From NCBI GenBank assembly GCA_964524995.1, contig CAZGDV010000002.1:1787-65786 (forward strand): a DNA stretch of 64,000 nt. Direction: 5' to 3'. Each line of letters opens with the position of its first letter. Position 1 is the stretch's first letter. The position numbers were made by a program, and so were the translations under genes. The notes beneath the pieces were generated by a model that saw only the letters and a list, made by a program, of their open reading frames with translations, made no database searches and was not told the origin of the DNA. Positions 17,905 through 61,627 of the stretch are shown here, piece after piece. This DNA comes from an uncultured Dehalococcoidia bacterium (GTDB taxonomy: Bacteria > Chloroflexota > Dehalococcoidia > SZUA-161).

Positions 17905-17984
17905 GTCAAGACGTTTGAACATCTGGCTGTCTGCGCGTGCAGACATCTGGCCCTTCAGACGTTCAGCTGCGCCGCTGTCCCGTG
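17905..17984 (+). repeat. 8-bp-phased intergenic repeat cluster (YCWGNYGT family)
   Basis: GTTTGAAC ATCTGGCT GTCTGCGC GTGCAGAC ATCTGGCC CTTCAGAC GTTCAGCT in the divergent DUF4870/trpS spacer. Confidence 0.6.
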
Positions 17985-18040
17985 TTGTGTGCACTCTGCG
18001 TTTTATGTTACACTCCGCTCGTGATCCCAGGAGGCACGAA

Positions 18041-19018
18041 TTGAAGAAGAGGCGAGTGTTCTCTGGAGCCCGACCTACCGGCAGACAGCACATCGGCAAC
18101 TACATCGGAGCGATTCAGAACTACGTCGGCCTGCAGGAGGACTACGACTGCATCTACTGCGTGGTCGATGTCCACGCTCTGACTACACTCGAGGATACGC
18201 ACCTCCTCAAGGAGAACACCCGGGAGATGGTGCTCGACTGGCTGGCGGCCGGACTCGATCCCGAGCGAAGTATCATCTTCGTGCAGTCCCACGTACCCCA
18301 GGTCATGGAGCTTCACACCTACCTGAGCATGGTTACACCTCTGGGCTGGCTCATGCGAGTTGCCACGTTCAAAGAGAAAGTGAAGAGCCAGCCCCATAAT
18401 GTCAACTACGGGCTTGTGGGCTACCCCGTGCTGATGACAGCCGATATCGTGCTGTACAAGGCGGACACGATACCGGTCGGTGAGGACCAATTGCCCCACT
18501 TGGAACTCGCCCGTGAGATCGTGCGCCGCTTCAACTTCCTCTTCAGTCCGACCTTCCCTGAGCCAAAGGCGAAGCTCACGACTTACCCCATGGTTATGGG
18601 CCTCGACGGCGAGCGCAAGATGAGCAAGAGCTACGACAACCACCTGGAGCTGGCCGCCACGCCGGAGGAGACGGCCCAGCGTGTCATGACCGCTTTCACA
18701 GACCCTGCGAGGAAGCGCCGCAACGACCCGGGACACCCCGAGGTCTGCAACATCTACAGCCTCCATCATAACTACAACCCCGATCGGGTGGAGGAACTCG
18801 CCAGCCAGTGCCGGAGCGCAGGAATAGGCTGCGTGGAATGCAAGCAGCTCCTAGCTGCGGGGATCAATCGGGACCTTGAACCCTTCCGCCAGCGAAGAGC
18901 CGAGATCTCGGCGCGCAAGGGCTACGTGGAAGAGGTGCTGGCCGATGGTGCGAGACGCGCTCGCGTCATAGCGGATGACACGATGCAAGAGGTCAGGGAG
19001 AGAATGGGCCTGCCATGA
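18041..19018 (+). CDS. trpS: Tryptophan--tRNA ligase
   Basis: 325 aa from TTG 18041, 8 nt after GGAGG. TGRQHIGNY (HIGH-type) and RKMSKS motifs. The upstream 57-codon extension is rejected. Confidence 0.93.
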   Translation: MKKRRVFSGARPTGRQHIGNYIGAIQNYVGLQEDYDCIYCVVDVHALTTLEDTHLLKENTREMVLDWLAAGLDPERSIIFVQSHVPQVMELHTYLSMVTPLGWLMRVATFKEKVKSQPHNVNYGLVGYPVLMTADIVLYKADTIPVGEDQLPHLELAREIVRRFNFLFSPTFPEPKAKLTTYPMVMGLDGERKMSKSYDNHLELAATPEETAQRVMTAFTDPARKRRNDPGHPEVCNIYSLHHNYNPDRVEELASQCRSAGIGCVECKQLLAAGINRDLEPFRQRRAEISARKGYVEEVLADGARRARVIADDTMQEVRERMGLP

Positions 19019-19815
19019 CAGACCTGCCCGACTCCGTTACCGGAAAGGACGCTCTCGAAGTCGCCGTCGCCGCCGCCCGGCAAGCCGGCGCTATCCTCAC
19101 CGATCGTTTTCGCGGGAGTACGAAGGCGCACTTCAAGGGCAGGGCCAACATCGTTACCGAGGCCGATCTGGAGGCGGAGCGAGCCATCATCTCATTACTC
19201 CGCGCCGAGTTCCCCGACCACGGCATACTCTCCGAGGAATCCGAACCGATCGCCGGCGACGCTGGCCTGACGTGGATCCTGGACCCGCTGGACGGCACGA
19301 ACAACTTCTCCTTCGGCATACCTCTGTTCTGCGTCGTACTCGCCCTGACCAGGAGTGACGAGTCGCTGCTTGGCGTTATCTACGATCCCCTCCGAGACGA
19401 GCTTTTCTCCGCCCGCAAGGGCGGTGGTGCCTATCTCAACGGCCAGCCAATGTCGGTCACACGCAAGACCACCGTCCCGGAGTCGCTGGTCGGCCTGGAC
19501 CTGGGCTACGTTGATGAGAACGGGAAGAGGCTTCTTCAGCTGTTGGCCAGGCTCTGGCCGAACGTGTACGCCTTCAGGCTGATGGGCTCGGCAGCCCTCT
19601 CAATGGCATACGTCGCCTGCGGCCGGCTCGATCTGTACTTCCACCTGCTTCTGTACCCCTGGGAGCTCGCCTGTGGCCAGCTCCTGGTCACCGAAGCGGG
19701 CGGGGTGGCCACGAACTGGAGTGGCGCACCGCTGGGAACGCAGGGCGACTCCATTGTCGCCTCCAATCCCGAGGTCCACGCCGACTTCCTGGCACGGCTC
19801 CGCGACATGGCCTAG
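19015..19815 (+). CDS. Inositol monophosphatase family protein
   Basis: 266 aa. WILDPLDGTNNF motif; ATGA overlap with trpS. Confidence 0.88.
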   Translation: MTDLPDSVTGKDALEVAVAAARQAGAILTDRFRGSTKAHFKGRANIVTEADLEAERAIISLLRAEFPDHGILSEESEPIAGDAGLTWILDPLDGTNNFSFGIPLFCVVLALTRSDESLLGVIYDPLRDELFSARKGGGAYLNGQPMSVTRKTTVPESLVGLDLGYVDENGKRLLQLLARLWPNVYAFRLMGSAALSMAYVACGRLDLYFHLLLYPWELACGQLLVTEAGGVATNWSGAPLGTQGDSIVASNPEVHADFLARLRDMA

Positions 19816-19969
19816 CCACACGAAGACCGCGATCCGCAGACCTCCAGCTCCGCAACGCGTGCTTATGGTTTTCTTATTCTCAGCTAACATAATCCTAATA
19901 CTCAAACGTTATCATTGTTGATCACAAGGGCTGGAGGGCCAGACCGTCTACCCCTTCGGGAGGTGAGCG

Positions 19970-20218
19970 ATGTCTGGGCCTGACGAGAGCGAAGGCGATC
20001 GTAGAAGTGACAGAGGTCCGTGGGTGACAGTGCAGGAAGCCGCTCGACTCCTGAACGTACACCCCAACACACTGAGGCGCTGGGGCAACCGAGGGTTGAT
20101 CAGAACGTTTCGGGTCGGCCCCCGTGGCGACAGGCGCTATAGGCGTCAGGACATCGACGACCTGCTCTGCGAGCAAGCACCTCAACTGCCCGCGGGTCAA
20201 CCCGGACGACACAGGTAG
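19970..20218 (+). CDS. Small excisionase/MerR-type HTH DNA-binding protein
   Basis: 82 aa. WVTVQEAARLLNVHPNTLRRWGNRGLI HTH; GGGAGGTG SD; preceded by an AT-rich patch. Confidence 0.6.
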   Translation: MSGPDESEGDRRSDRGPWVTVQEAARLLNVHPNTLRRWGNRGLIRTFRVGPRGDRRYRRQDIDDLLCEQAPQLPAGQPGRHR

Positions 20219-20270
20219 CATAGCCAACGGTCAGGCAACGTCTGCTCGAATCGTTGCGCTTGAACCGTGT

Positions 20271-20304
20271 CAGAAGAAGGGAGCCAGCCATTAGGCCGGC
20301 CCCC
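20271..20304 (-). terminator. Rho-independent terminator of cooS
   Basis: On the minus strand: GGGGGCCGGCC-TAAT-GGCTGGCTCCC (11 bp, 2 G-U) followed by TTCTTCTG. Lies 30 nt past the cooS stop. Confidence 0.6.
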
Positions 20305-25849: not shown

Positions 25850-25945
25850 CTGGACTCCTGACCGTCTGGACATTGGTATAGCTGAATGTCCAGACGTGTC
25901 GACTGCCAAACGTCTGACCATTCCAATGTCGCGACATCCAGGCGA
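25850..25945 (+). repeat. 8-bp-phased intergenic repeat cluster
   Basis: TCTGGACA TTGGTATA GCTGAATG TCCAGACG TGTCGACT GCCAAACG TCTGACCA TTCCAATG TCGCGACA TCCAGGCG. Confidence 0.6.
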
Positions 25946-26032
25946 GACCACGCCGGCTACTCGACTATGCTCATACTATCACAGGCGCATTGATGACTGG
26001 GAGTCTGGGACGGCGGGACTGCTCGACAGAGG

Positions 26033-26085
26033 TATGTTTGGCCATCCAGACCTTCAGGCGTCTGGCTGTCTCGACGCGTTGGTCC
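26033..26085 (+). repeat. 8-bp-phased intergenic repeat cluster
   Basis: CCATCCAG ACCTTCAG GCGTCTGG CTGTCTCG ACGCGTTG, just before the trkA stop. Confidence 0.5.
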
Positions 26086-26095: not shown

Positions 26096-26788
26096 CTAAT
26101 CAGACTTCTGGTTCCCCTCCTGCTGCTTCCTGGCATCGGTCAGGAACTGCTCCAGTTTCTCGTCGCGGCCTGAGGCTACAAGGATATCGTTCTCCCGTAG
26201 CGTCTCGCTCAGAGCCGGAGCTACTATCACCTCCTTGCCGCGCTGTACGAGCAGTGCGGCAAGCTCCCATTTCCCCTCAGGCCCGAAGCCGAGTCCCTCC
26301 AGGGTCTTGCCCACGCAATACGGCGGCACCTTCATCTTGGCGACCCCGTACTTCTCCGCCACGGACATATAGTCCGATACATCCCGCAGTGTCAGTTCGT
26401 GCGCCACCTCTCTCCCCATCTCCCGCTCAGGATACACCACCCTGTCGGCACCGATTCTGCCGAGTATGACACCATGCAACTCGTCCTCAGCCCTCGCGAT
26501 GACGTACTTCACGCCAAGCATCTTGAGGAGAATGGTCGACAAGACACTGCTTTCGATTGCAGACCCCAACGCTACTATGGCCACGTCGAAATCCACTATA
26601 CCCAGTTCCCTCAACACCGCTTCGTCCGTGGCATCCGCCTGCACTGTGTGCGTTATCTTCGTCGCCATGGCCTGCACTCGCTTCTCGTCCGTATCCATCG
26701 CCAACACATCGTGTCCCAGCTTGCACAGCGTCTCGGCCAGGCTTGACCCGAATCTGCCCAGGCCAATGACCACCACCTGTTTCCTCAT
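26096..26788 (-). CDS. trkA: Trk/Ktr potassium uptake NAD-binding subunit
   Basis: 230 aa. VVIGLGRFGSSLA Rossmann motif and an RCK_C region. Confidence 0.88.
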   Translation of the reverse strand: MRKQVVVIGLGRFGSSLAETLCKLGHDVLAMDTDEKRVQAMATKITHTVQADATDEAVLRELGIVDFDVAIVALGSAIESSVLSTILLKMLGVKYVIARAEDELHGVILGRIGADRVVYPEREMGREVAHELTLRDVSDYMSVAEKYGVAKMKVPPYCVGKTLEGLGFGPEGKWELAALLVQRGKEVIVAPALSETLRENDILVASGRDEKLEQFLTDARKQQEGNQKSD

Positions 26789-26797
26789 CTCTGCCCC

Positions 26798-28237
26798 CTA
26801 TCCGATCCTTACGGTCTCGTGAGGATACCTGAAAGCGCTCGGCCGCTCCCGCTGTATCAGCGACAACGCCAGCGTGAGAGGCCCCAGCCTGCCCACGAAC
26901 ATGGTAACAACAATGACGATCTTCCCGGCTATCGACAGCTCCGGGGTAATACCTGTTGTCAGGCCCACGGTGCCGAATGCCGAGACCGTTTCGAAGAGCA
27001 GGTCAAGAAACTTGAACGGCTCCGTCATCGTCAGCACCAGCACAACCACCGTCACGAACGCCAACGACAGCATGACCACAGCAAGGGCCCTGTGCACCTG
27101 CTGCATGTCGAACTCACGCCCGAACGCCCCCGCGCGTTCCTTGCCCCTGATCGAACTCCATATCGTGGCAACGAGCATACCGAAGGTGTTGACCTTGATT
27201 CCACCAGCCGTCGAACCCGCCGCCCCACCAACGAACATCAGAAGTATCGTAAAGAACAGCGTGTAGTCAGCCACTTGCCTTATGTCAACCGTTGTGAAAC
27301 CTGCGGTCCTGGCAGTCACCGACTGGAAGAAGGCATCCAGGAAGCGCTGCGGGGTCGACACGGCACCGAGAGTCCCGTCGTTGCCGAACTCGGTGAGCAG
27401 GATCACGGCGAATCCTGCGGCGAGCATGGCCGCCGACGCAGTCAACACAATCTTGCTGTCCAGAGCCAGCCTCTTGAAGCGACGCACGTTGATCACATCA
27501 GAGACGACGATGAACCCTATGCCCCCTGCTATCACCAGGACAGCCGTCACCAGAACGACCAGAACATCGTCGCCGTAGTCGATCAGGCTTCTATAGTTGC
27601 CGAAGACATCAAACCCCGCATTGTTGAAAGCGGACACCGAATGAAACACCGATCGCCAGAGGGCCGTGCCGAAGGGGCCCTCTCCAGAGAAACGTATATA
27701 GAGAATCGCAGCGCCCGCGGCCTCAACGAGGACAGTGAACAAGGCTATCCTCTTCACCAAGCCGATCAGTCCCCCCATCCCACCCATCCCCACCGTTTTC
27801 CCGATGAGCAACTTCTCCTTGAGGCCGATCCTCCTGCCCAGAACGAGGAGGAGGAGGGTAGCACTCGTCATGAACCCGAAGCCGCCGATCTGGATCAAAA
27901 CGAGAATCACGCCCTGCCCGAAGGAACTCCAGTACGTACCGGTATCGACAACGACGAGTCCCGTCACACAAACAGCCGATGTTGCCGTGAAGAACGCGTC
28001 CACAATCGGACCGAAACCACCACCGGTGTTCGATATCGGCAGCCACAGCAGCAGCGTGCCTATCCCTATGACACCAGCGAAGCCGTAGATCAGAAGCAGC
28101 GGGGACAGGAGGGTCCCTTTGGGCCGTGGCACCAATTGAACGGGTACCGTCCACGGCCTCGTCCCCGTCCCGCGACGCGCCGCCCTACCCATCCACATCC
28201 TGAACATTACGTAGCGCCCACCATCGATCTCACTCAA
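26798..28237 (-). CDS. trkH: Trk/Ktr-type potassium transporter membrane subunit
   Basis: 479 aa polytopic protein with repeated pore-loop motifs (TATSAVCVTGL, SAFNNAGF, VTARTAGF, SAFGTVGLT). The exact start is uncertain. Confidence 0.88.
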   Translation of the reverse strand: MSEIDGGRYVMFRMWMGRAARRGTGTRPWTVPVQLVPRPKGTLLSPLLLIYGFAGVIGIGTLLLWLPISNTGGGFGPIVDAFFTATSAVCVTGLVVVDTGTYWSSFGQGVILVLIQIGGFGFMTSATLLLLVLGRRIGLKEKLLIGKTVGMGGMGGLIGLVKRIALFTVLVEAAGAAILYIRFSGEGPFGTALWRSVFHSVSAFNNAGFDVFGNYRSLIDYGDDVLVVLVTAVLVIAGGIGFIVVSDVINVRRFKRLALDSKIVLTASAAMLAAGFAVILLTEFGNDGTLGAVSTPQRFLDAFFQSVTARTAGFTTVDIRQVADYTLFFTILLMFVGGAAGSTAGGIKVNTFGMLVATIWSSIRGKERAGAFGREFDMQQVHRALAVVMLSLAFVTVVVLVLTMTEPFKFLDLLFETVSAFGTVGLTTGITPELSIAGKIVIVVTMFVGRLGPLTLALSLIQRERPSAFRYPHETVRIG

Positions 28238-28375
28238 ACTCCAGATGTGCCAGCAGCCACCGTTGCCATCCTGGATGGTTCTGGACTATTCTAATAGACT
28301 TTGCACCTTGTTGCGATGCGCCAACAGCCTCCCACACCCGCCCGGGTCCCCGCTGACGGCGGCCAAGGCGCTACA

Positions 28376-28465
28376 CGATTGTCAGCTGGACAGCCAGCTG
28401 TTCAAATGTCTAGCTGTCCAGCTACCCGATCTCTGTGCCTGCTGGCGACCAATGCAGTTGCCGAG
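28376..28465 (+). repeat. 8-bp-phased intergenic repeat cluster with internal inverted pair
   Basis: GTCAGCTG GACAGCCA GCTGTTCA AATGTCTA GCTGTCCA GCTACCCG... The pair GCTGGACAGC / GCTGTCCAGC is inverted. A weaker patch lies at 28240-28292. Confidence 0.6.
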
Positions 28466-29594: not shown

Positions 29595-30506
29595 TCACCG
29601 CATCCTTCTGGCCTGCCAGTGCAGCCACACGAAGTGGATAACCGAGAAGGCCGAGAAGACCGCCACCGGCATAGCCGCCTGCGCCCCGAAGAAGGCCAGC
29701 GCTATCGCGGCACTCAGGCCATCGTTCTTCCTCGCGCCGAACAGCATCATCGTGATCCGCTCGGCCCTGGGCACGCCGAACAGGCCGGCTACGCGGCTTA
29801 TCACCTCCGCGAGAACGAATGTGCAGATGAACGCTATGACAATGAGGGGCGGCAGCAGGCTCGGCTCCTGCAGGAACGTATCCCGGTTCAGGCCGACGAT
29901 GGTGTAGATGACCAGGAAGAACCCCCAGTTGGCGACGGGCGCCCTCGACCTCTTGACGACACCGAGCAGCCTCGTTCGCCTGATCACCCTCGATGCCAAG
30001 ATGGGCGCAACGATAAGCTCGGCCAGTATCACCAGCAGCCTCGCCGGCTCGACGAGACTGCTGCCGAGCAACAGCACCGACAGCAAAGGAGTGATGGCCA
30101 GCGCGGCGACGTAGGCACCCAGATTGCCCACCAGCGCCAGGCTGGTGCTTCCACCTAGAAGGTAGCTCAGCGGGATGACCGCCACGGCCGGAGGCACCGC
30201 CGCCATCAGCGCGTATCCGTTGCGGAAGTCGGGCTCGGACACGAGAAGCAACGATAGGCCGATGAATGCGCCCCCGAGTACGATCCAGTTCAGTACCACG
30301 GCGATGAGGACGGGCCGCACGACCTCTCGGGGCTCCAGGAACACCCTGGTCGACACATCGCAGATCGATACTGTCATGATGACGGCCAGGACCGGCACAA
30401 GGGCGTGCTCCGTCCATGAAGCGCCCTGACCGGCTGCCAGGCCGGCAACCATGGCCAGCAGGAAAACGAAGCTGCTGTTGCCAAGCAACAGGCGCAGCAG
30501 GCGCAT
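29595..30506 (-). CDS. BASS/SBF-like (bile acid:Na+ symporter fold) transporter, paralog 1
   Basis: 303 aa polytopic protein from ATG 30506 (ATGA overlap with the upstream paralog). Clearly similar to 30506-31438. The longer ORF prefix is rejected. Confidence 0.65.
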   Translation of the reverse strand: MRLLRLLLGNSSFVFLLAMVAGLAAGQGASWTEHALVPVLAVIMTVSICDVSTRVFLEPREVVRPVLIAVVLNWIVLGGAFIGLSLLLVSEPDFRNGYALMAAVPPAVAVIPLSYLLGGSTSLALVGNLGAYVAALAITPLLSVLLLGSSLVEPARLLVILAELIVAPILASRVIRRTRLLGVVKRSRAPVANWGFFLVIYTIVGLNRDTFLQEPSLLPPLIVIAFICTFVLAEVISRVAGLFGVPRAERITMMLFGARKNDGLSAAIALAFFGAQAAMPVAVFSAFSVIHFVWLHWQARRMR

Positions 30507-31438
30507 CAGCGCATCCTCTTCGCCCACCACGTCAGCCAGACGAAGTGGAGGATGTTGAACACCGAGCACACCGCGGCGGGCATCGCGGCTTTGGTGCCGA
30601 AGAAGATGACGGCAATGGCACCGGCGAGCGCGTACGTCTTCCTCGTCCCCAGCAGGGCATAGCTGATCCTGTCCGCCTTGGGACTCCCGAGAGCCCTTGT
30701 ACCCCGATCGATCAACTCCCCGAGCACGAAGGTGCTGGCGAAGGCGATCCCGATGCTGAGCAGGAGGACGCGCGGCTCGCTGATGAACGTATCCCTGTTC
30801 AGGCCGAAGATGGTGTAGAAAATGACGAAGAAACTCCAGTTGACTACGGGCCCTCTCCACCTGTCCACGGTTGACATAATACGGGTGCGCCGAATGACCT
30901 GGGATATGAGGATCGGCGCGAGGATGAGTTCGCCCAGCAGAATGAGCAGGCGGTTCAGCTCTATGAAGTTGCTGCCGAGGAAGATGACGCAGATCAACGG
31001 CGTAATGGCGAGGGCCGCGAGATACGCGGCGACGTCGCCCACCAGCGACAGCCTGGTGTTGCCGCCGAGCTGGAACGTGAAGGGGATCACCGCCACCGCC
31101 GGCGGCACCGCTGCCACGAGGACGAAACCGGTATGTATGTCGGAATCGTCGAAAATGAGGGCCGAGAGACCGATGTAGGTCCCGCTGAGCAGGACGTAGT
31201 TGAGCAAGAGGGCAACGGCGATGGGGACAATGATGCGTCGAAGCTCCAGGAATACGCCCAGCGACACCTCGAGGATGGAGAGGGTCATGATCAGGCCGAG
31301 CAGGGGCACCATTGCGGGCTCCGTGAACTCCGCGCCCTCGGGATAGAGCAGGCCCACCACGATGGCCAAGATCAGTATGAACCTGTTGTTGCGCAGGAGC
31401 CCCAAGATACGCGCTCTGACCGGTCCCGTTCTCATCAC
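30506..31438 (-). CDS. BASS/SBF-like transporter, paralog 2
   Basis: 310 aa. Shares VAAVPPAVAVIP, LAALAITPL, APIL.S.VIRRTR and IYTI.GLNRDTF blocks with paralog 1. Confidence 0.65.
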   Translation of the reverse strand: MMRTGPVRARILGLLRNNRFILILAIVVGLLYPEGAEFTEPAMVPLLGLIMTLSILEVSLGVFLELRRIIVPIAVALLLNYVLLSGTYIGLSALIFDDSDIHTGFVLVAAVPPAVAVIPFTFQLGGNTRLSLVGDVAAYLAALAITPLICVIFLGSNFIELNRLLILLGELILAPILISQVIRRTRIMSTVDRWRGPVVNWSFFVIFYTIFGLNRDTFISEPRVLLLSIGIAFASTFVLGELIDRGTRALGSPKADRISYALLGTRKTYALAGAIAVIFFGTKAAMPAAVCSVFNILHFVWLTWWAKRMR

Positions 31439-31580
31439 CCCACAGCCCTCATCTCCGACCGCACACGCGACATGTTAGCACGCGCCCTGCAATCCATACA
31501 ATTGCCGTCAAACAGCCGTTAGCAGCAACCGTCCACTGGTATACTGGTGTTGTCGCGCCGCTGATTGCTTTGTCCGAGGA

Positions 31581-31607: not shown

Positions 31608-31985
31608 ATGCCAGCGAAAGCGCCAATCGAGGGGTATGTAGATCTCACATTCAAGTTCCATAAGGAAGGCGAGAACTGGCTGGCGGAGTGTCTAGAACTC
31701 GGCACGGCGACATTCGCACCGACTCTGGAGGAGGCGCAGAAGGATATCGCAAGTGCAATCTCCGCCCAGCTTCGGGACTGCCAGGAACTCCGCGAGTTGA
31801 GAGAGTATCTGCGTTCTCACAAGGTGAGGATTCACAAGACCCGACCCCGGGGCAGCAGGAAGCTCGTTGATCGCTCGAACGGAAAGGCATTATACCAGCC
31901 ACTAGTACTGCCTGTTCGGGGAAAGGCGTCTCGTGTACACAAGCATTCCCAAGATCACAGGACCCCAGCTCATAAGGCTGCTTAG
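31608..31985 (+). CDS. hicB: HicB-family antitoxin
   Basis: 125 aa. N-terminal YVDLTFKFHKEGENWLAECLELGTATFAPTLEEAQKDI matches the HicB/UPF0150 fold pattern. GGAGG SD. Confidence 0.7.
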   Translation: MPAKAPIEGYVDLTFKFHKEGENWLAECLELGTATFAPTLEEAQKDIASAISAQLRDCQELRELREYLRSHKVRIHKTRPRGSRKLVDRSNGKALYQPLVLPVRGKASRVHKHSQDHRTPAHKAA

Positions 31986-32184
31986 CTTAGACGGTTGGGA
32001 GATACGCAGAAAAGCCAGGCATGGTCTGGTATTGAGAAAGCGTATCGCCGGCAGACTGTTCCGCACCGTCGTTTCGACTAGACCTGAACCCCTGCCAGAG
32101 GGTACGCTGAGTGCCATTCTCCGCCAGACCGGGCTCGGCAAGGAAGGGCTCCTCCGGCTCCTCAACAAGCACGGCCTGAAATAG
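31933..32184 (+). CDS. hicA: HicA-family mRNA-interferase toxin
   Basis: 83 aa from GTG. ITGPQLIRLLSLDGWEI...H...LPEGTLSAILRQTGL is a typical HicA/YcfA pattern. Overlaps hicB by 53 nt. Confidence 0.7.
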   Translation: MYTSIPKITGPQLIRLLSLDGWEIRRKARHGLVLRKRIAGRLFRTVVSTRPEPLPEGTLSAILRQTGLGKEGLLRLLNKHGLK

Positions 32185-32217
32185 GTCGTGCGCACTACCC
32201 CCCCCCAACATCTGCGA

Positions 32218-32246
32218 TTGAAGTGTTAAGATAACGATGGTATCAT
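32218..32246 (+). promoter_or_regulatory. Promoter for the ImmA/DUF4411 pair
   Basis: TTGAAG(32218)-17 nt-TATCAT(32241) with a TGg extension (TGGTATCAT). Confidence 0.5.
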
Positions 32247-32272
32247 GCTGACATCTGTGCGCTAACCCCTGT

Positions 32273-39160: not shown

Positions 39161-39964
39161 ATGAATGTTGCCCAGTTTCGCAAGTCGCGATCCGGTGTAC
39201 TCCTCTTAGCCCTCACTCTCGTTTCCGCTCTCACCTTGCTCGTGGCTGGTTGCAGCACCGGCCCGGAAACGAGCGAGACATACACATTCAATGTCGGTGA
39301 GATGGCCAAGCTCGTGGTGACCGCTGACAACACCCAGGTGGACATCCAGGCCCAACCGGGCGGCAACATAACCGTACAGGCAACGCTGCGCCGCGCCGAC
39401 GACCTGACCTACGAGTTATCCCAGGACGGCAACACCGTCACCATCGACATCGACATCGAGGGCGCAGGGTTCATCGGCGAGAGCCCCGGCGCGGAGCTTG
39501 ACATAACCGTCCCGCCGCAGACGGAACTCGATATCCGCACATCCAACGGCGCGGTTAACGGCAACGGTACGCACGGCATCGCCAAGGTGGAGACGTCGAA
39601 CGGCAAGATCGAGTTCAAGAACGCGAGCGGCGATTTCGACCTCAGGACCAGCAACGGCAGCCTGAACCTGTCGGACTTCTCAGGCCAGGTTGACGGCGAG
39701 ACGAGCAACGGCCGGATCGAGTTCGAGGGCAACCTGACTGACGGGTCGGAGAACCGCCTCACAACGAGTAATGGCAGAATAGACGTAGAGTTCGATGCCG
39801 AGCCCAACATCGACCTGGACGCCGAGACGAGCAACGGCGATATCGATTGCGACTTCCCCATCACGGCGACGGTGACCGGCGACGACCGCCTGGTCGGCAC
39901 GATCGGCGCCGGCGGCACGAAGCTGGACCTGAGCACGAGCAACGGCGACATAACGATCAGGTAG
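39161..39964 (+). CDS. DUF4097-like beta-repeat lipoprotein (putative adhesin fold)
   Basis: Lipobox LLVAGC. Seven (E/T)TSNG(x)I(D/E) repeats typical of DUF4097. Confidence 0.75.
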   Translation: MNVAQFRKSRSGVLLLALTLVSALTLLVAGCSTGPETSETYTFNVGEMAKLVVTADNTQVDIQAQPGGNITVQATLRRADDLTYELSQDGNTVTIDIDIEGAGFIGESPGAELDITVPPQTELDIRTSNGAVNGNGTHGIAKVETSNGKIEFKNASGDFDLRTSNGSLNLSDFSGQVDGETSNGRIEFEGNLTDGSENRLTTSNGRIDVEFDAEPNIDLDAETSNGDIDCDFPITATVTGDDRLVGTIGAGGTKLDLSTSNGDITIR

Positions 39965-39980
39965 ACGCTCCACCATCCCT

Positions 39981-40035
39981 ATGTCCCAATGTCCGGGCTG
40001 CCAGATGTTCAGATGTCTGGCTGGCTACCCAGAGG
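39981..40035 (+). repeat. 8-bp-phased intergenic repeat cluster (strong copy)
   Basis: ATGTCCCA ATGTCCGG GCTGCCAG ATGTTCAG ATGTCTGG CTGGCTAC. Has a 22-nt identity with 61582-61603. Confidence 0.75.
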
Positions 40036-41606: not shown

Positions 41607-41627
41607 CGACGCGGCGAAGGAGGGCAG

Positions 41628-43330: not shown

Positions 43331-43369
43331 GTGACAACATTTGACAACATGTGACAACACTGATATAAT
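43331..43369 (+). promoter_or_regulatory. Consensus promoter overlapping a 3x10-bp tandem operator-like repeat
   Basis: GTGACAACAT TTGACAACAT GTGACAACAC (43331-43360). TTGACA(43341)-17 nt-TATAAT(43364) with a TG extension (43361-62). Confidence 0.7.
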
Positions 43370-45857: not shown

Positions 45858-45975
45858 GCAACGGCTCTGCGACGTTCAGCTGTCTGGCTGTTCAGCCGTC
45901 CCAACGATGGTACGTTGACTCACGCGACCGCCGTATTGTAGGATACGTCGAGTGCGACGGCTGTCTGCGAGAGGT
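45858..45975 (+). repeat. 8-bp-phased intergenic repeat cluster
   Basis: TGCGACGT TCAGCTGT CTGGCTGT TCAGCCGT CCCAACGA TGGTACGT TGACTCAC ... Confidence 0.55.
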
Positions 45976-46015: not shown

Positions 46016-46855
46016 GTGGAGTACGTAGTGCTGGGCCTGAGCATCGCCTTCGGGATCCTGGTTTTCCTCCTATCGATCACGGCTCTCGTGATCTGCATCA
46101 AGAACCGCTACGAGACCGCGGCCACCCTGAAACACGGTGTTCTTCTGGCGGCCGTGGTCATAGGCCTCGATCTATTGGCGATCCCCCTGGTACCCGACGC
46201 CCTCGCCGACATGGACACGGCGGTAATCGCCGTGCTGGCCATAGGGTCGATTCTGCGCTTCATCGCGATCACTCTTCTAACTTGTCTCGGCATCCACTGC
46301 GCCCGGTCGCTCGGCTATCAGGACGTACCACTGCTGAGAAGGCTTCTCGCGAGAGAGGAAGGCGACGGCGGTGTGGTCAGCAAGGGCTACCTCCTCTCGA
46401 GCATCGGCCTGGCGCTGGGCGCGGTTGCCTTCACCGCCATCCTGTTCGTGGCGATACCACCGCAACTGTCCAGCACCTTCGTCGACGTCTCGGAGATCGA
46501 CATGGCCGAGTACGGGATAGCCGAGTTCATAACGCCCGCGCTGATACTCGTGGTTATCCAGGCGACCATATACGAAGAGATACTGTTCCGCCTCTGCATC
46601 CAGAGCTTCGTCGCCAAGTACCTCGGACTGAACGGCAGGAAGTACGTCTGGGCGGTACTGCTCACGGCAGGTCTGTGGGCGATACTGCATCTCGGTGCAC
46701 TAGACCCGGTATGGATCAAGTTCGTTCAGGTGTTCCCGATCGGGATAGCCCTGGGATTTCTGTTCCGTAAGTACGGGCTGGGAAGCGCCATCCTGGCCCA
46801 CGGAGCCTTCAATGTGGCGGGCATGTTCCTGGCCGTCCATCTCGTCAACTGGTGA
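46016..46855 (+). CDS. CPBP-family intramembrane glutamic endopeptidase (CAAX protease/Abi-like)
   Basis: 279 aa polytopic protein. YEEILFRL, WAILHLG and ILAHGAFNV motifs. Confidence 0.85.
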   Translation: MEYVVLGLSIAFGILVFLLSITALVICIKNRYETAATLKHGVLLAAVVIGLDLLAIPLVPDALADMDTAVIAVLAIGSILRFIAITLLTCLGIHCARSLGYQDVPLLRRLLAREEGDGGVVSKGYLLSSIGLALGAVAFTAILFVAIPPQLSSTFVDVSEIDMAEYGIAEFITPALILVVIQATIYEEILFRLCIQSFVAKYLGLNGRKYVWAVLLTAGLWAILHLGALDPVWIKFVQVFPIGIALGFLFRKYGLGSAILAHGAFNVAGMFLAVHLVNW

Positions 46856-46907
46856 CATCCGGACAGCGGAATGTCAGGCTGTCTGGATGCGGCCATGTGA
46901 ACCCTCG
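46854..46907 (+). repeat. 8-bp-phased intergenic repeat cluster
   Basis: ...GGAATGT CAGGCTGT CTGGATGC GGCCATGT..., starting at the CPBP stop codon. Confidence 0.6.
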
Positions 46908-48159: not shown

Positions 48160-48222
48160 CTCCTGCCGCTCCGACATCCGGCCATCCAGCTGTCTGGACG
48201 TGGAGCCAGCTGCCGGGGACGC
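48160..48222 (+). repeat. 8-bp-phased intergenic repeat cluster
   Basis: CCGACATC CGGCCATC CAGCTGTC TGGACGTG GAGCCAGC TGCC. Confidence 0.55.
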
Positions 48223-50402: not shown

Positions 50403-52019
50403 ATGACAGAAGAACCCGCAAACGTAGCACTACCCCCCCAGCCCCCGGGCGTACGCTCCCTCCCCCGACGCCAGATCGCCATCACTATGGCGGGCGTGAT
50501 GCTGGCGATGTTCCTCGCTTCGCTGGACCAAACGATTGTTGGGACGGCCCTGCCCCGCATTGTCGCGGACTTGGGCGGGTTCACGAAGTACACCTGGGTC
50601 GCCACGGCCTACATAATCGCCTCGACGATCGCCGTGCCGATTACGGGGAAGCTCACCGACATGTACGGGCGCAAGTGGTTCTACGTCGGGGGCCTCTGCA
50701 TCTTCACCGTGGGCTCGATCCTCTGCGGGATCAGCGACACCATGAACCAGATCATCGCCTTCCGGGGGCTGCAGGGTGTGGGTGCCGGCGTAATGATGGC
50801 CAACGCCTTCATCGTGGTGGGGGACCTCTTCCCCCCTTCGGAGCGCGGCAAGTACCAGGGTCTCGTCGCGGGCATCTTCGGCCTGTCGTCGGTGATCGGC
50901 CCAACGCTCGGGGGGTTCATTACCGACTCCCTGTCCTGGCATTGGGTCTTCTTCGTCAACATTCCACTGGGGCTGCTGATAATCGGTTTGTTCATCTTTT
51001 TCTTCCCCAACGTCCGGCCGCAGGGCGTGAAGCCAAAGATAGACTTCCTCGGCGTGGCCTTGATGGTACTCGCGGTGGTGCCCGCCATGCTGGCGCTCAC
51101 TCTGGGCGGCGTGGACTACCCATGGCTCTCCGCCCAGATAATCGGGATGTTCGCCTTCTCCGCTGTCATGGCCCTTCTGTTCGTTCTCGCGGAGCCACGC
51201 GCCGCCGAACCCATAATGCCGATGTGGATATTCAAGAACCCCATAGTCGCCGTCTCACTCCTGGTCATATTCATAACCGGATTCGGCATGTTCGGTGCCA
51301 TCATCTACATACCGCTCTTCTTCCAGGGCGTGCTCGGGATGTCGGCGACGGCAAGTGGCAGCTTTCTCACGCCTATGATGCTGGGGCTCGTAGCCGGAAG
51401 CGTCATCTCCGGCCAGATACTGTCGCGCGCCGGAGGTCACTACCGCCTCCAGGGCGTTTTCGGCCTGGCCATGATGGCCGCGGGCATGGGCCTGATGTCG
51501 ACCATGACCGCGGAGACGAGCTACGCGACGGCGGTTGCCTACATCGTGCTGCTGGGGTTCGGCCTGGGTTGCACGATGCCGTTGTACGTCATAGCTGTAC
51601 AGAATGCCGTCCCGTACAAGGTCATGGGGATCGCCACTTCCTCAACCGCCTTCTTCCGCCAGATAGGCGGCGCTTTGGGGCTGGCCATTCTCGGGTCGAT
51701 CGTGACCAACAGATTCCAGTCCGACTTCCTGTCGGGCCTGTCCCAGGCCGCAAAGGAGGCCACGCCGCCGCAGCTCCTGGACGAACTGGCGCAGAACCCT
51801 CAGGCGCTGATGAACGTTGAAGCTCAGGACAACCTGCGGGCCTTCTTCGAGCAGTTCGGTCAACAGGGGGCCGCGCTGTTCGAACACATCATGGAGACCC
51901 TGAAGATAGCGCTCAGCTCAGCGATAGCCCAAGCGTTCCTGATCGGATTGTTCGTAGTGATCGCCGCATGGGTGGTCAACTGGTTCATCAAGGAGATACC
52001 TCTCCGCACGCAGCACTGA
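50403..52019 (+). CDS. MFS transporter, DHA2 (EmrB/QacA-like, 14-TM) family, paralog A
   Basis: LDQTIVGTALPRI, GKLTDMYGRK and RGLQGVGAG motifs. ATG 50403 is preferred. Confidence 0.88.
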   Translation: MTEEPANVALPPQPPGVRSLPRRQIAITMAGVMLAMFLASLDQTIVGTALPRIVADLGGFTKYTWVATAYIIASTIAVPITGKLTDMYGRKWFYVGGLCIFTVGSILCGISDTMNQIIAFRGLQGVGAGVMMANAFIVVGDLFPPSERGKYQGLVAGIFGLSSVIGPTLGGFITDSLSWHWVFFVNIPLGLLIIGLFIFFFPNVRPQGVKPKIDFLGVALMVLAVVPAMLALTLGGVDYPWLSAQIIGMFAFSAVMALLFVLAEPRAAEPIMPMWIFKNPIVAVSLLVIFITGFGMFGAIIYIPLFFQGVLGMSATASGSFLTPMMLGLVAGSVISGQILSRAGGHYRLQGVFGLAMMAAGMGLMSTMTAETSYATAVAYIVLLGFGLGCTMPLYVIAVQNAVPYKVMGIATSSTAFFRQIGGALGLAILGSIVTNRFQSDFLSGLSQAAKEATPPQLLDELAQNPQALMNVEAQDNLRAFFEQFGQQGAALFEHIMETLKIALSSAIAQAFLIGLFVVIAAWVVNWFIKEIPLRTQH

Positions 52020-52074
52020 CGAATGTCTGGCTGTCCAGGCGTCTCGCCATTCGACCGCTCAGCTGTCGAACCCT
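52018..52074 (+). repeat. 8-bp-phased intergenic repeat cluster (strong copy)
   Basis: ACGAATGT CTGGCTGT CCAGGCGT CTCGCCAT TCGACCGC TCAGCTGT, in the convergent spacer. It overlaps both stop codons. Confidence 0.7.
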
Positions 52075-58622: not shown

Positions 58623-59213
58623 ATGAGCCAGAGCTTAGACCTGAAAGAGATAGAGCGCAAGGCCTGGAAGTCCTACTACGAGGACGGCATGTGGGACACG
58701 TTCATGGGGCTGCTAATGATAGCGATGGGCGTCGATCTGCTCACGCAGGAGGGCCCCGCCTTCTACGCCCTGATCGGCGTCGCCGCACTCAGCCCGGCCC
58801 TCATCAAGTGGTTCATCACCATGCCCAGGCTGGGTTGGGTCAAGTTTGGCCCTATGAGGCGGACCAGGGACAAGCTGATGAAGGCCGTCCTCGCGTTCTC
58901 GATACTGATTGGAATCGGCGGCTTCGTGGCGTACACGGTCGGCGCGGAGCCTCCGAGCGGTGTGTTCCCGGCCATCGCGGCTGTCGTGATCTTCGCCGTG
59001 TTCGCGTCGATGGCATACCTGAAAGAGTTCCCTCGCCTCTACGGGTACGCCGTGGCGTACTCGCTTTCGATAGGGCTGGCGCTCACCATGGAGGACTTCG
59101 TGCCAATGGTGCTGTTCTTCGTATTCGGCGGGACAGGCCTGGTCATCGGGCTGGCGCTGATAGCCCGCTTCGTCCGGAGGTATCCAGTGATCAGAACGGA
59201 AGGTGCAGGGTAG
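58623..59213 (+). CDS. Hypothetical polytopic membrane protein, tandem paralog 1
   Basis: 196 aa. The N-terminal LDLKEIERKAWKSYYEDGMWD plus about 5 TM segments is paralogous to 59311-59904. Confidence 0.7.
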   Translation: MSQSLDLKEIERKAWKSYYEDGMWDTFMGLLMIAMGVDLLTQEGPAFYALIGVAALSPALIKWFITMPRLGWVKFGPMRRTRDKLMKAVLAFSILIGIGGFVAYTVGAEPPSGVFPAIAAVVIFAVFASMAYLKEFPRLYGYAVAYSLSIGLALTMEDFVPMVLFFVFGGTGLVIGLALIARFVRRYPVIRTEGAG

Positions 59214-59310
59214 GATGGGAGCATCTGCCCCCATGCCGTACAACGCGAGTGCGGTTTGGTGCCGCCTGCGCGGAGCGGATGCTCCGCGCCCACCCAAGGG
59301 GGAGTGAGCC
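59214..59310 (+). repeat. Intergenic element E1 with two GGAGC-N4-GC(T/C)CC dyads
   Basis: GGAGC-ATCT-GCCCC (59218-59231) and GCGCGGAGC-GGAT-GCTCCGCGC (59268-59289), then the SD AAGGGGGAG. Confidence 0.6.
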
Positions 59311-59904
59311 ATGACGACTCAGATCGATCTGAAGCAGATAGAGCGCAGGGCCTGGACCATGTATTTCGATGACGGGCTGTGGGAGATCTTCCTCGGGGTC
59401 CTGCTGATCGGAATGGGGGTTCGAACAGTCACGGACAACGTGTGGTTCACGTTCCTCGCGCTTTCCTCCGTACTGGTGTGGCCTTTGGGAAAGAGGCTGG
59501 TCACGATTCCGCGCGTGGGCCTCGCCAAGTTCGGCCCGGCCCGCAGGGCCAAGCAGTTCAAGATAACGGTGATCATAGTTGTCGCTGTCCTGGCGACGTT
59601 TGCGCTGTGGATCTACGCCGCCAACTCGGGTGTCAACCTTCCCGACGCCGCTTCCGCGGCCGTCGTCGGTGGATTCATTACGTTCATCTTCTGGCTGCTG
59701 GCATACTTCCTCGATTTCCGCCGCCTCTACCTCTACGCGCCTCTCTTTGCCTCGACGCTTGCCCTTTCGGAGGTGTTCGAAGACCCCATACCGGGGTACG
59801 CGGCGCTGGGTGCCGGGGGCCTGATCCTGCTGATCGGCGCGTTGTACCTCCTGCGGTTCATGCGCCGGTACCCGAAGCCTTCGCTGGAGGAATCGGATGC
59901 CTGA
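59311..59904 (+). CDS. Hypothetical polytopic membrane protein, tandem paralog 2
   Basis: 197 aa. IDLKQIERRAWTMYFDDGLWE. Same topology and the same C-terminal L(I/Y)(A/L)RF(V/M)RRYP motif as paralog 1. Confidence 0.7.
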   Translation: MTTQIDLKQIERRAWTMYFDDGLWEIFLGVLLIGMGVRTVTDNVWFTFLALSSVLVWPLGKRLVTIPRVGLAKFGPARRAKQFKITVIIVVAVLATFALWIYAANSGVNLPDAASAAVVGGFITFIFWLLAYFLDFRRLYLYAPLFASTLALSEVFEDPIPGYAALGAGGLILLIGALYLLRFMRRYPKPSLEESDA

Positions 59905-60000: not shown

Positions 60001-60327
60001 GTGACCCATGAAACGCCCTCTGAGGGCTTGCAGCCCATATCCGAGATCGACCGCGTCATTCACGAGCCGGCGAGGCTGATGATCCTGGCCCATCTGTACG
60101 TGGTTGACAGCGCAGATTTCCTCTTCCTCATGCGCCAGACCGGCCTCACCTTCGGCAACCTTTCGTCCCACATGAGCAAGCTGGAGGCCGCGGGGTACGT
60201 GCACGTCGCGAAGGGATTCGCCGGGAGGAAGCCGCGCACCATGCTCAGGCTCACCGGCAAGGGACGCGAGGCCTTCAAGTCCTACCGCCAGAGCATGAAA
60301 CAGGTCCTGGACGGCCTGCCAGACTGA
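60001..60327 (+). CDS. Winged-helix transcriptional regulator (ArsR/MarR-like small wHTH)
   Basis: 108 aa from GTG. IHEPARLMILAHL...LTFGNLSSHMSKLEAAGYV...GRKPRTMLRLTGKGREAF. Confidence 0.75.
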   Translation: MTHETPSEGLQPISEIDRVIHEPARLMILAHLYVVDSADFLFLMRQTGLTFGNLSSHMSKLEAAGYVHVAKGFAGRKPRTMLRLTGKGREAFKSYRQSMKQVLDGLPD

Positions 60328-60400
60328 CGCTTGGGCATTCCACCATTCAGATGTCTGGATGGCCGCATTCAGGCCTTGAGTTCCAGCGCCGTTTGCGGTA
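60328..60400 (+). repeat. 8-bp-phased intergenic repeat cluster
   Basis: CCATTCAG ATGTCTGG ATGGCCGC ATTCAGGC CTTGAGTT CCAGCGCC GTTTGCGG. Confidence 0.55.
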
Positions 60401-60450
60401 TCATTCCACCCCCCAGGCGACCTCCATGACAGGCCGCCAAGGAAGCCGGA

Positions 60451-61551
60451 ATGATACCACTCTTCCAGCAGTACCCGCTGCTCAGCGAGAAGCTGCCCTA
60501 CACGCCTTTGGCCGACTTGCCCACGCCTGTGGAGCAGCTGGAGCGCACCGGTAGAGAGATCGGGCTGGACTCGCTGTACATCAAGAGGGACGACCTCAGT
60601 GGCAGGCTGTACGGCGGGAACAAGGTACGCAAGCTGGAGTTCCTCCTGGGAGAAGCCCTGCGCTCCGGCGCGAGAGAGGTCCTGACGTTCGGATTCGCGG
60701 GCTCCAACCACGCGCTGGCTACGGCGATCTACGCCAGAGAGCTGGGACTGAAGAGCATCTCCATGCTGATGCCCCAGCCCAACGCCCGCTATGTGAGGCG
60801 TAACCTCCTCATGAGCTACGAATGCGGGGCCGAGCTTCACCACGGTCGGAGCATCCCAATCCTGGCGTGCGCGACGTTCTATCAACAGCTCCGGCACCGT
60901 CTGATACGCGGCAGCTTCCCCGTTATGGTTCCCGCCGGTGGTTCGTCAACCCCGGGCGCTACCGGCTTCGTCAACGCCGCTCTGGAGCTGCGGGACCAGA
61001 TCATTGGCGGCCAGATGCCCGAACCCCATGTCGTCTATTTAGCGCTCGGCACGTCGGGGACCGCCTCCGGCCTGATGCTGGGGCTGAAGGCCGCAGGACT
61101 GCAGAGCCGCGTCGTCTGCGTCGCCGTAGCGCCGGAGAGGTTCGCCAACGCCTCGAGGACGGCCGGGCTGCACAACAAGATCGCCAGCTATCTCCATTCC
61201 CTCGATCCATCGTTCCCCGAGCACAACATGGGCGCAGAAGAAGTTGACATAAGACACGGCTTCTTCGGTAAGGGCTACGCCCACTTCACCCAGCAGGGGA
61301 TGGAGGCCGTCAACCTGGTCAAGGAGACCGACGGTATCAAGCTGGAGGGGACGTACACAGGCAAGGCGTTCGCCTGCCTGATCGACGACGCCAGGAAGGG
61401 CCAACTGAAGGGCAAGACAGTGCTGTTCTGGAACACCCACAACTCAAGGGAGTTCCCGGACGCCGTGGACTCGATCGACTACCGCCGCCTGCCCCGGCCT
61501 TTCCACAGGTACTTCGAGCAGGACGTTCAGCCTCTGGACAGGGAACAGTGA
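60451..61551 (+). CDS. PLP-dependent ACC deaminase / D-cysteine desulfhydrase family enzyme
   Basis: 366 aa. LYIKRDDLSGRLYGGNKVRKLEFLL (PLP lysine) motif. Confidence 0.85.
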   Translation: MIPLFQQYPLLSEKLPYTPLADLPTPVEQLERTGREIGLDSLYIKRDDLSGRLYGGNKVRKLEFLLGEALRSGAREVLTFGFAGSNHALATAIYARELGLKSISMLMPQPNARYVRRNLLMSYECGAELHHGRSIPILACATFYQQLRHRLIRGSFPVMVPAGGSSTPGATGFVNAALELRDQIIGGQMPEPHVVYLALGTSGTASGLMLGLKAAGLQSRVVCVAVAPERFANASRTAGLHNKIASYLHSLDPSFPEHNMGAEEVDIRHGFFGKGYAHFTQQGMEAVNLVKETDGIKLEGTYTGKAFACLIDDARKGQLKGKTVLFWNTHNSREFPDAVDSIDYRRLPRPFHRYFEQDVQPLDREQ

Positions 61552-61560
61552 ACCAGCGGG

Positions 61561-61627
61561 GCTGCCCGCTGTCCGGCCCCTCAGATGTTCAGATGTCTGG
61601 CTGTCCAGATGCTCAGACGGGGCAGCC
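61561..61627 (+). repeat. 8-bp-phased intergenic repeat cluster (strongest copy)
   Basis: TCAGATGT TCAGATGT CTGGCTGT CCAGATGC TCAGACGG, flanked by GGGGCTGCCCGCTG / CGGGGCAGCC. It overlaps the GRE stop codon. Confidence 0.75.

Follow-up and report, generated by a model that had tools for sequence, protein, structure and literature searches.

Centromeres built from arrays of short repeats and read by ribbon-helix-helix proteins are known from plasmids, with archaeal SegAB as another case. ParG of plasmid TP228 recognises degenerate 4-bp boxes with 4-bp spacers at an 8-bp period, eight of them in OF and 12 in parH, and these direct and inverted boxes are coated cooperatively with one dimer per box (PMC3130281). 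The omega protein of pSM19035 acts at six parS sites of 7-10 heptads each, which overlap promoters and of which at least four contiguous repeats are needed (PMC9499535), and ParB of pCXC100 binds nine degenerate 9-bp repeats (PMC3074162). MetJ is described, in a work quoted by a later paper (Davidson and Saint Girons 1989, cited in PMC3274233), as binding an 8-bp palindrome in tandem copies, and in Geobacter metallireducens four tandem GTTGCTYN octamers recur at 48 sites annotated as predicted binding sites of a global regulator (PMC2700814). Here we describe arrays of degenerate octamers in a 64,000-nucleotide stretch of DNA, the window, from an uncultured Dehalococcoidia bacterium of the Chloroflexota (GenBank assembly GCA_964524995.1, contig CAZGDV010000002.1, positions 1,787 to 65,786, forward strand), which belongs to a 105-127 kb metagenome contig that several samples yielded in identical form. 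The arrays are real and non-random, and they are confined to the DNA between genes. On balance, and with considerable reserve, we lean towards reading them as centromere- or operator-like docking sites that would be coated by the small partner protein of a parA-like gene, and that appear to have been multiplied in this lineage.

Arrays were scored as four-unit log-odds with a position matrix built on 60 in-phase units, against a null of 20 shuffled 64-kb windows. The first-pass annotation of the window had listed 11 primary sites as arrays in 8-nt phase, and all 11 were upheld, with best four-unit scores of 23.2-33.2 bits compared with a mean of maxima of 12.8 bits and a top score of 16.9 bits in the shuffled windows. 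Its four weaker candidates (19931-19965, 20221-20275, 28240-28292 and 31450-31560) scored at most 1.1 bits each and are not arrays, and some of its intervals, for example 45858-45975 and 28376-28465, contained an array as claimed but overran the phased part. The consensus of the matrix was Y-Y-R-G-M-Y-R-T (RGMYRTYY in shifted phase), a unit composed of two degenerate palindromic tetramers, CYRG and then AYRT, with C often standing for A at position 5; because both tetramers are palindromic, an array reads nearly alike on either strand. Exact (YYRGMYRT)x3 matches occurred three times in the window, and (YYRGMYRT)x4 matches with up to two mismatches eight times, with none of either kind in 100 shuffles. 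A five-unit consensus scan gave nine clusters of at least 14 bits, 33 window positions reaching this score versus 0.25 expected from dinucleotide-preserving shuffles.

Base identity within the arrays was 0.46, 0.42 and 0.45 at lags of 8, 16 and 24, with a weaker 4-nt harmonic, a test that is partly circular because the arrays had been chosen with an 8-nt model. Pooled intergenic DNA, which provides an unbiased test, gave a lag-8 identity of 0.300 versus 0.262 ± 0.006 in shuffles. Tandem Repeats Finder returned only three short array fragments (63-100% matches, 2-3.8 copies), and short perfect duplications occur, for example two copies of TCAGATGT at 61581; its recovery of fragments alone indicates that the arrays are too degenerate for ordinary tandem repeats. 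When the arrays were anchored on the unit CTGGCTGT, a common core of (C/T)CAGAYGT - TCAGATGT - CTGGCTGT - CYRG emerged, with conservation fading further out on its 5' side than on its 3' side. Most arrays carry the core TCAGATGT-CTGGCTGT, and an octamer series of the array type can be written as (TCAGATGT CTGGCTGT CCAGATGT)n. The exact 22-mer common to 40002 and 61582 and the exact 16-mer common to 52023 and 61593 had been quoted correctly; apart from the arrays beginning at 39961 and 61557, which share 39 nt at 85% identity (repeat family D2, with 22 nt exact), array copies are only about 45% identical per position.

The arrays were then placed on a gene map of recorded gene calls and Pfam hits. 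Arrays of 23-33 bits were present in 10 of the 37 spacers of at least 30 nt, one of which held two arrays, and the other 27 spacers scored no more than 7.1 bits; by spacer type, arrays occupied two of three convergent, two of six divergent and six of 28 tandem spacers. None of 57,154 fully coding windows reached 16 bits (maximum 15.4), and the arrays were all intergenic or overlapping stop codons, in agreement with the earlier observation that coding interiors are free of them. The accompanying claim that arrays fill nearly every non-operonic spacer after 17.9 kb was overstated, as the count there was 10 of 31. The onset at 17.9 kb was likewise only apparent: a further array lies just before the window start, and the seeming onset arises because the operon-dense arg-recG-argS block precedes it. 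Seven window arrays adjoin a stop codon: they overlap it, start no further than about 8 nt from it or end no further than 20 nt from it. Promoter-like hexamers begin 0-25 nt past six arrays, in the same layout as at parA.

The array before the window start (locus L005, 1717-1772) lies 103-158 nt before window base 1, at the promoter of a parA-like Walker ATPase gene (1..694, + strand, 252 amino acids, the first 65 nt preceding the window). The product matched Pfam CbiA/AAA_31/MipZ, and its best NCBIfam match was ParA_partition with an E-value of 3e-34, below the curated cut-off of that model. The gene next to it (684..965, + strand) encodes a partner of 93 residues, the candidate array-binding protein. 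Besides L005, parA/partner loci were compared from a CAZNOI01-like contig (L101), from CAYVQT01 (L104), from a source whose homologue is only 55% identical (L107) and from the distant 2.14-Mb genome CP070819.1, with 51% G+C (L102). In all five lineages an octamer array, of 6 to 13 units, was found directly upstream of parA, and parA was followed, with an 11-nt overlap, by a partner gene for 92-106 amino acids. In L005, L101, L102 and L104 the array ended in an invariant GTC-TTGACA-GC, its last unit overlapping the -35 hexamer TTGACA, and was followed by a 17-nt spacer, TATAGT or TACTAT, about 16 nt and the ATG.

A second matrix was trained on 29 units taken from the parA arrays of the four other genomes only. 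This matrix, of the form Y-Y-R-G/A-A-Y-R-T, recovered nine of the 11 window arrays above all 20 shuffles and nothing else in the 64 kb, the scores including 30.1 bits for the array at 28378, 24.9 bits for that at 48162 and 22.7 bits for that at 26022. Conversely, the window-array matrix scored the parA arrays at about 27 bits, and in L102 and L104 these were the sole clusters at or above the listing threshold of 15 bits. This reciprocal recovery indicated that the dispersed arrays and the parA-promoter array are one sequence class. No further arrays were found in 20 kb of L102 or in 18.8 kb of L104; one array is carried by L013, from the same contig as L104. In L107, the most distant of the parA/partner loci compared, array-like octamers were additionally seen at 4091-4146 and 4294-4333, within the stretch of the partner gene that encodes the variable N-terminal part and right after its stop codon.

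Homologues of the partner fell into 116 clusters, in which all named sources were Dehalococcoidia, Chloroflexota or Chloroflexi. Across 38 aligned homologues the residues R44-x-K46-A-T48-F-Y50 were invariant and preceded two helices, and the N-terminal part, otherwise variable, held a conserved motif, ERTLGxRxxIFRKTDxxIPEL; two of the 38 gave weak matches to Pfam VapB_antitoxin. AlphaFold2 predicted the first ~40 residues to be disordered and the C-terminal 54 residues to form an extended segment and helices at 53-70 and 76-91 (mean predicted local distance difference test score, pLDDT, 90.8). As modelled, the C-terminal domain has the element order of a ribbon-helix-helix monomer, and we infer that it is ribbon-helix-helix-like.

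We propose that a small dimeric DNA-binding protein, most likely the 93-residue partner encoded just downstream of parA, would recognise one 8-bp box per dimer and cooperatively coat a row of 5-12 boxes. At the parA promoter the array would serve as operator and centromere together, as in type Ib plasmid partition, such that a partner coating it would repress its own operon and form a partition complex. In the window lineage the array type appears to have been multiplied and is present at at least 12 intergenic sites over ~62 kb downstream of parA; the extra arrays could act as added places for the partition complex to load, much like multiple parS sites, with those abutting promoters being operators too and the promoterless ones of convergent spacers fitting a centromere or roadblock role. 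Binding of the partner to the arrays is a prediction of this kind, drawn from sequence, and the biological role may be partition, regulation or both. The parA operon layout, with its promoter array in five lineages, favours a mechanism in which a protein reads the register. Of the first-pass suggestion that a cooperative protein reads 8-nt registers on DNA or RNA, the version on double-stranded DNA is thus favoured and the RNA version is not. The 8-bp period had also been regarded as oddly off the DNA helix; since ribbon-helix-helix proteins coat arrays with 7-, 8- and 9-bp periods, such a period is typical of them and no anomaly. The first-pass annotation had missed the two-palindrome make-up of the unit, the core common to most arrays, the parA operon at the window start and the confinement of the family to a narrow lineage.

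To follow the arrays among relatives, the matrix was applied to 80 ArgS loci of 2.5-22 kb each. An ArgS search, taking one genome per species, placed the window among uncultured Dehalococcoidia, the nearest genome being the metagenome-assembled genome CAZNOI01 (GCA_964574685.1), at 80% ArgS identity. Only CAZNOI01 (L007) and CAYVQT01 (L013, 73% identical) carried arrays; L025 gave a borderline match of 16.9 bits and the remaining ArgS loci were without an array. A metagenome scan with the core pattern returned 12 loci, two of them real relatives (L091 and L095, from a sister sample), and an nhmmer profile made from ten anchored window arrays found independent copies on other loci, the strongest in L091 (E 7e-8). 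L091 has arrays on either side of the orthologue of a major facilitator superfamily (MFS) gene of the window, and one of these (3946-3997) begins at the stop codon, as does the window array at 52011. L007 is collinear with 5.7-25.8 kb of the window, and the presence or absence of arrays agreed in every orthologous spacer: the window array at 17891-17978 corresponds to L007 12645-12724, that at 25850-25945 to L007 21073-21144, and window spacers without arrays were also array-free in their L007 orthologues. The trkA-trkH pair (window 26096-28237), flanked by arrays in the window, is absent from L007 (21013-21164), and in L013 the array (16663-16718) coincides with a break in synteny, so arrays may mark changes in gene order or promote them.

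The convergent spacer between a pyridoxal-phosphate (PLP)-enzyme gene of the PALP family and a pyruvate formate-lyase (PFL)-like gene carries an array not only in the window but also in two loci yielded by a search for homologues of the PLP enzyme, L088 (89% amino-acid identity) and L087 (72%). The PLP-enzyme gene is a poor marker, its nearest homologues being 72% identical or partial and some of them sourced to archaea or other bacterial phyla. Counted from the PFL stop codon, the three arrays are in one and the same phase, and each contains TCAGATGTCTGGCTGT. Between the window and L088 the array spacer is identical at 59 of 61 positions, compared with 84.8% and 87.6% at third codon positions, that is, ~2 changes versus ~8 expected. 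By this sequence comparison the constraint on one array exceeds that on synonymous sites, and the evolutionary pattern points to maintenance of the arrays.

These data bear on the suggestion, made when the arrays were first noted, that they arose by slippage-type expansion. The corresponding explanation, that the arrays are decayed octanucleotide microsatellites left without function by neutral replication slippage, would account for head-to-tail units, a strict period and short perfect duplications, and is in our view highly improbable. It leaves unexplained the recurrence of one unit at at least 12 sites and at the parA promoters of distant genomes; the units are not identical, and their degeneracy follows a two-palindrome grammar; position and phase are conserved across species; and the PALP/PFL array is more conserved than third codon positions. 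A lag-8 identity of only 0.46 is also far from the near-identical units by which microsatellites and the short tandemly repeated repetitive (STRR) sequences are defined, the STRR units of cyanobacteria being near-identical heptamers.

The same comparisons bear on a spread by transposition, in which the arrays would be selfish or structural repeats resembling repetitive extragenic palindromic (REP) elements, bacterial interspersed mosaic elements (BIMEs) or miniature inverted-repeat transposable elements, kept where insertion is tolerated. REPs are hairpins tied to RAYT transposases. The arrays resemble such elements in being dispersed, intergenic and ~50-90 nt long with a core common to most; the matching pair at 39961 and 61557 suggests copying, arrays flank the trkAH insertion or deletion relative to the sister genome, and among the 12 contig arrays the ten-array nhmmer profile gave an orientation of 10 versus 2. 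Yet no consistent hairpin is present, and terminal inverted repeats or target duplications were not seen in the arrays and flanks that were read. Copies other than the one pair are only about 45% identical per position, no Y1 transposase (RAYT) was among the genes scanned or called over ~73 kb, and positions are stable across species. The parA-promoter copy, found in distant genomes without dispersed copies, argues that a functional site came first, and we give transposition little credence. The orientation bias does not amount to strict replication-strand polarity, a candidate that was rejected: pattern matches were all on the + strand, yet nhmmer placed two of 12 arrays in the opposite orientation, and the parA-trained matrix showed that individual arrays mix unit orientations. 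Base skew was C>G on the + strand though most genes are +, and the replication strand was not identified by skew.

Several observations weigh against the reading of the arrays as docking sites for the partner. The link between protein and array is adjacency at one type of locus. The partner occurs across the Dehalococcoidia and the dispersed arrays in a narrow lineage only, so the partner alone does not explain the multiplication, and all arrays so far lie on parA-bearing contigs or on contigs syntenic with them. The test of conservation covers a single spacer (PALP/PFL, window versus L088). Pfam, NCBIfam and Protein Data Bank sequence and profile searches with the partner gave no significant match, and Foldseek gave none either, with all E-values >2 and the ribbon-helix-helix proteins pCXC100 ParB (3no7_B) and ParD2 at non-significant ranks 27 and 44; hhalign against Arc and CopG aligned helix B only, without significance. 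Arrays in convergent spacers cannot be operators. Finally, a role at the 3' ends of transcripts would also be consistent with the many arrays that start at a stop codon and with their tendency to run in the direction of the gene upstream.

The adjacency and the mismatch in distribution would equally suit a different DNA-binding protein, such as a nucleoid-associated or global regulator encoded elsewhere, for which the parA promoter is one target among others; the narrow spread of the dispersed arrays could mean a lineage-specific factor, and promoter-like motifs abut six arrays. We regard this as unlikely, though worth keeping in view. An array on the parA/partner promoter in five lineages is the classic self-regulated type Ib layout (PMC3074162, PMC9499535). 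Across these lineages an invariant box type is matched by invariant strand residues in the partner, and no alternative candidate protein is known.

An RNA-level or transcriptional role at gene ends, with the arrays being protein-binding elements of 3' untranslated regions, stabilisers or unconventional terminators, draws on the seven window arrays at or near stop codons, on the agreement in orientation between plus-strand genes and the arrays after them, and on a degenerate unit that is identical on either strand. Classical terminators were not enriched in the window (nine found versus 7.2 expected), and strong hairpins are present in three arrays (25850, 28378 and 46843), whose folding surpassed that of shuffles (z from -2.7 to -5.0). 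The remaining eight of 11 had no significant structure on either strand (z -1.25 to +0.3), and the arrays lack T-tracts. Two arrays occupy divergent spacers, with both genes downstream of them, and those at 26022 and 48162 run counter to the gene whose stop codon is next to them. The conserved parA array stands upstream of the -35 hexamer and so is not transcribed from the parA promoter. Taken together, this makes a gene-end role improbable. The folding results also led to rejection of the idea that all arrays are REP-like hairpins, and Rfam at gathering thresholds had no match at the arrays. The 24-48-nt identical repeats and unique spacers of a CRISPR were not found, the arrays having an 8-nt period and no spacers; their earlier separation from CRISPR, ordinary terminators and REP-like hairpins therefore holds.

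A wider form of the docking-site reading is that the Dehalococcoidia chromosome is segregated or organised by a type Ib-like ParA/ribbon-helix-helix machine, beside or instead of ParB-parS, and that the multiplied arrays double as loading sites and as punctuation of transcription units, with operators at promoters, roadblocks at convergent ends and few intrinsic terminators. We offer this tentatively, as a doubtful but possible extension.

The window arrays, all scored with the 60-unit matrix, are as follows. The array at 17891..17978 (+, ~11 units, 26.2 bits, core TTGAACAT-CTGGCTGT) occupies the divergent spacer between a DUF4870-like gene (-) and a gene of the tryptophanyl/tyrosyl-tRNA synthetase (TrpRS/TyrRS) family (+), and was matched by nhmmer on the + strand with E 1.9e-6, the profile including this array and nine other window arrays. 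The array at 25850..25945 (-, 12 units, 23.8 bits), downstream of the start of a Crp/Fnr gene (-), was best modelled in the opposite orientation, with an nhmmer match on the - strand (E 0.005), and contains a dyad with a 14-bp stem (RNA fold z = -5.0 on one strand and -4.0 on the other). That at 26022..26077 (+, 7 units, 26.4 bits, core TCAGGCGT-CTGGCTGT, nhmmer E 7.5e-8) ends 19 nt before the trkA (-) stop codon, and that at 28378..28433 (+, 7 units, 30.3 bits, core TCAAATGT-CTAGCTGT) occupies the spacer from which trkH (-) and a hypothetical gene (+) diverge, with an 11-bp-stem dyad (z = -4.0 and -4.4) and a promoter-like -35 beginning at 28458.

The array at 39961..40032 (+, 9 units, 24.1 bits) begins at the stop codon of a DUF4097 gene, upstream of an NgoMIV-type methylase/restriction pair, and a promoter-like TTGACG-17-TAGCAT begins at 40052. 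Between DUF2284 and CAAX-protease genes, the array at 45868..45915 (+, 6 units, 27.6 bits, core TCAGCTGT-CTGGCTGT) includes an exact (YYRGMYRT)x3 match, and a promoter-like TTGACT-18-TAGGAT begins on its last base (45915). The CAAX-protease stop codon is overlapped by the array at 46843..46898 (+, 6-7 units, 25.2 bits), which has a 12-bp-stem dyad (z = -3.3 and -2.7) and a promoter-like motif beginning at 46905. Another exact (YYRGMYRT)x3 match lies in the array at 48162..48209 (+, 6 units, 30.2 bits), located between two minus-strand genes and ending 14 nt before the stop codon of a CrtC-like gene. The array at 52011..52074 (+, 8 units, 24.8 bits) fills the convergent spacer between the MFS gene (+), whose stop codon it overlaps, and a DUF169 gene (-). 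That at 60323..60370 (+, ~5-6 units, 23.2 bits, core TCAGATGT-CTGGATGG, nhmmer E 1.1e-6) begins at the stop codon of an HTH_34 gene, upstream of the PALP gene, with a promoter-like TTGAGT-17-TATCAT 3' of it beginning at 60376. The best array, 61557..61620 (+, 8 units, 33.2 bits), fills the convergent spacer between the PALP (+) and PFL-like (-) genes, its last unit including the stop codon of the latter, which encodes a glycyl-radical enzyme.

Other features of the window and of neighbouring loci were recorded alongside the arrays. A full-length c-di-GMP-II riboswitch (Rfam RF01786, 68.8 bits) at 38111-38194 (+) lies upstream of a hypothetical gene (38246-38794) and of the DUF4097 gene (39161-39964). 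The genes at 40080-42485 (+), right after an array, encode an N6/N4 DNA methylase and an NgoMIV-family restriction enzyme, and their third-position G+C of 0.62, under that of their neighbours, suggests a horizontally acquired restriction-modification module. Third-position G+C is also reduced at 31608-33939 (+), where a HicA-like toxin, a helix-turn-helix (HTH) protein with an ImmA/IrrE peptidase, and DUF4411 form a cluster of defence or toxin-antitoxin type. At 43329-43369 (+), three 10-nt tandem repeats, ATGTGACAAC, ATTTGACAAC and ATGTGACAAC, overlap a promoter that fits the consensus perfectly (TTGACA-17-TATAAT, extended by TG) just 5' of the ATG at 43381 of an HTH_17/HipA-like gene; they resemble a separate operator belonging to a module of toxin-antitoxin type and have no relation to the octamer arrays. 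Tandem paralogues were found at 29595-31438 (-), a pair of SBF-family transporters with a 159-nt repeat at 74% identity, and at 58623-59904 (+), where proteins of ~197 amino acids without a family have a 95-nt repeat at 72% identity. Within argJ-argB-argD-argG-argH, a gene for a 938-residue UPF0182 membrane protein (3357-6173, +) overlaps argB by 4 nt, an order kept in the related Dehalococcoidia loci L101 and L104.

Past the window end, at ~66.4-68.0 kb, an RVT_1 reverse-transcriptase gene (524 amino acids, L001 15944-17518, +) stands between DUF488 genes and the his operon; it is absent there in the sister genome (L087) and is possibly a group II intron or retron-type element. A 97-nt non-coding stretch, 82% identical, is common to two otherwise unrelated CAYVQT01-like loci (L095 7267-7362 and L104 2895-2991, also L105 818-914), one copy lying ~230 nt from an octamer array, and ARAGORN found no tRNA gene at either the L095 or the L104 copy. 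In the searchable literature, neither the core sequence nor searches on Dehalococcoidia repeats or par systems gave a description of the array family; an 11-mer of the core was met in IS2 transposase papers, which we took as coincidence.

If the docking-site reading holds, the arrangement would be a new one: a chromosomal centromere of repeat-array type, conserved across a bacterial class and multiplied in one lineage. Questions that would become testable are how a centromere of this type spreads, whether a single small protein is both segregation factor and genome-wide regulator or insulator, and how the uncultured, sediment-abundant Dehalococcoidia organise their chromosomes. The arrays also give a candidate function to an unannotated conserved family, which has no Pfam or NCBIfam model, and (CYRG AYRT)n upstream of parA is a simple signature that can be searched in other genomes.

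Among known systems, the locus is like TP228 ParF/ParG in that a small Walker ParA gene precedes the gene of a small partner whose N-terminal tail is flexible, and that degenerate boxes, direct and inverted, recur every 8 bp upstream of the operon. It differs in being chromosomal, in having CYRG/AYRT boxes rather than the ACTC boxes and AT-rich spacers of TP228, and in its array number, at least 12 over ~62 kb compared with one locus, and the fold and binding are predicted only. Several separate arrays of short repeats, some at promoters, recall pSM19035 delta/omega, the arrays here having 5-12 units; the pSM19035 sites are operators and centromeres on a plasmid, with non-palindromic repeats (WATCACW) at a 7-bp period, whereas several arrays here lie in promoterless convergent spacers. 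The repeats of pCXC100 are, like the arrays here, contiguous, weakly conserved and found through periodicity, and differ in their 9-bp period and single plasmid locus; the structural match of the partner to pCXC100 ParB was not significant. In its layout, with a flexible tail ahead of a C-terminal domain, the partner corresponds to ParG, omega and pCXC100 ParB (PMC3074162).

MetJ operators share the 8-bp register and consist of 2-5 or more tandem degenerate palindromic boxes. The met box is AGACGTCT; read as (CTAG ACGT)n, we take it to be one instance of the (CYRG AYRT)n unit. The arrays at 25850 and 26022 include exact AGACGTCT-like boxes. MetJ represses methionine genes in gammaproteobacteria, whereas the genes beside the arrays have no relation to methionine, being trkAH, genes for MFS transporters, a restriction-modification pair and a PLP enzyme, and others, and no MetJ domain or homologue was found among the proteins scanned. 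Chromosomal parS clusters read by HTH-type ParB likewise place multiple sites over tens of kilobases around a par operon; parS itself is a single 16-bp palindrome loaded with a clamp dependent on cytidine triphosphate (CTP), and the canonical palindrome TGTTTCACGTGAAACA had no match in the window with up to three mismatches allowed. The Geobacter octamers are the nearest dispersed precedent, and differ in sequence, in being paired on opposite strands and in lacking a par link, which is also lacking in REP/BIME and STRR, themselves dispersed intergenic short repeats. Compared with the known repeat-array centromeres and operators of type Ib, what appears to be new here, as judged from sequence, is an array system that is chromosomal, in 8-bp phase and multiplied.

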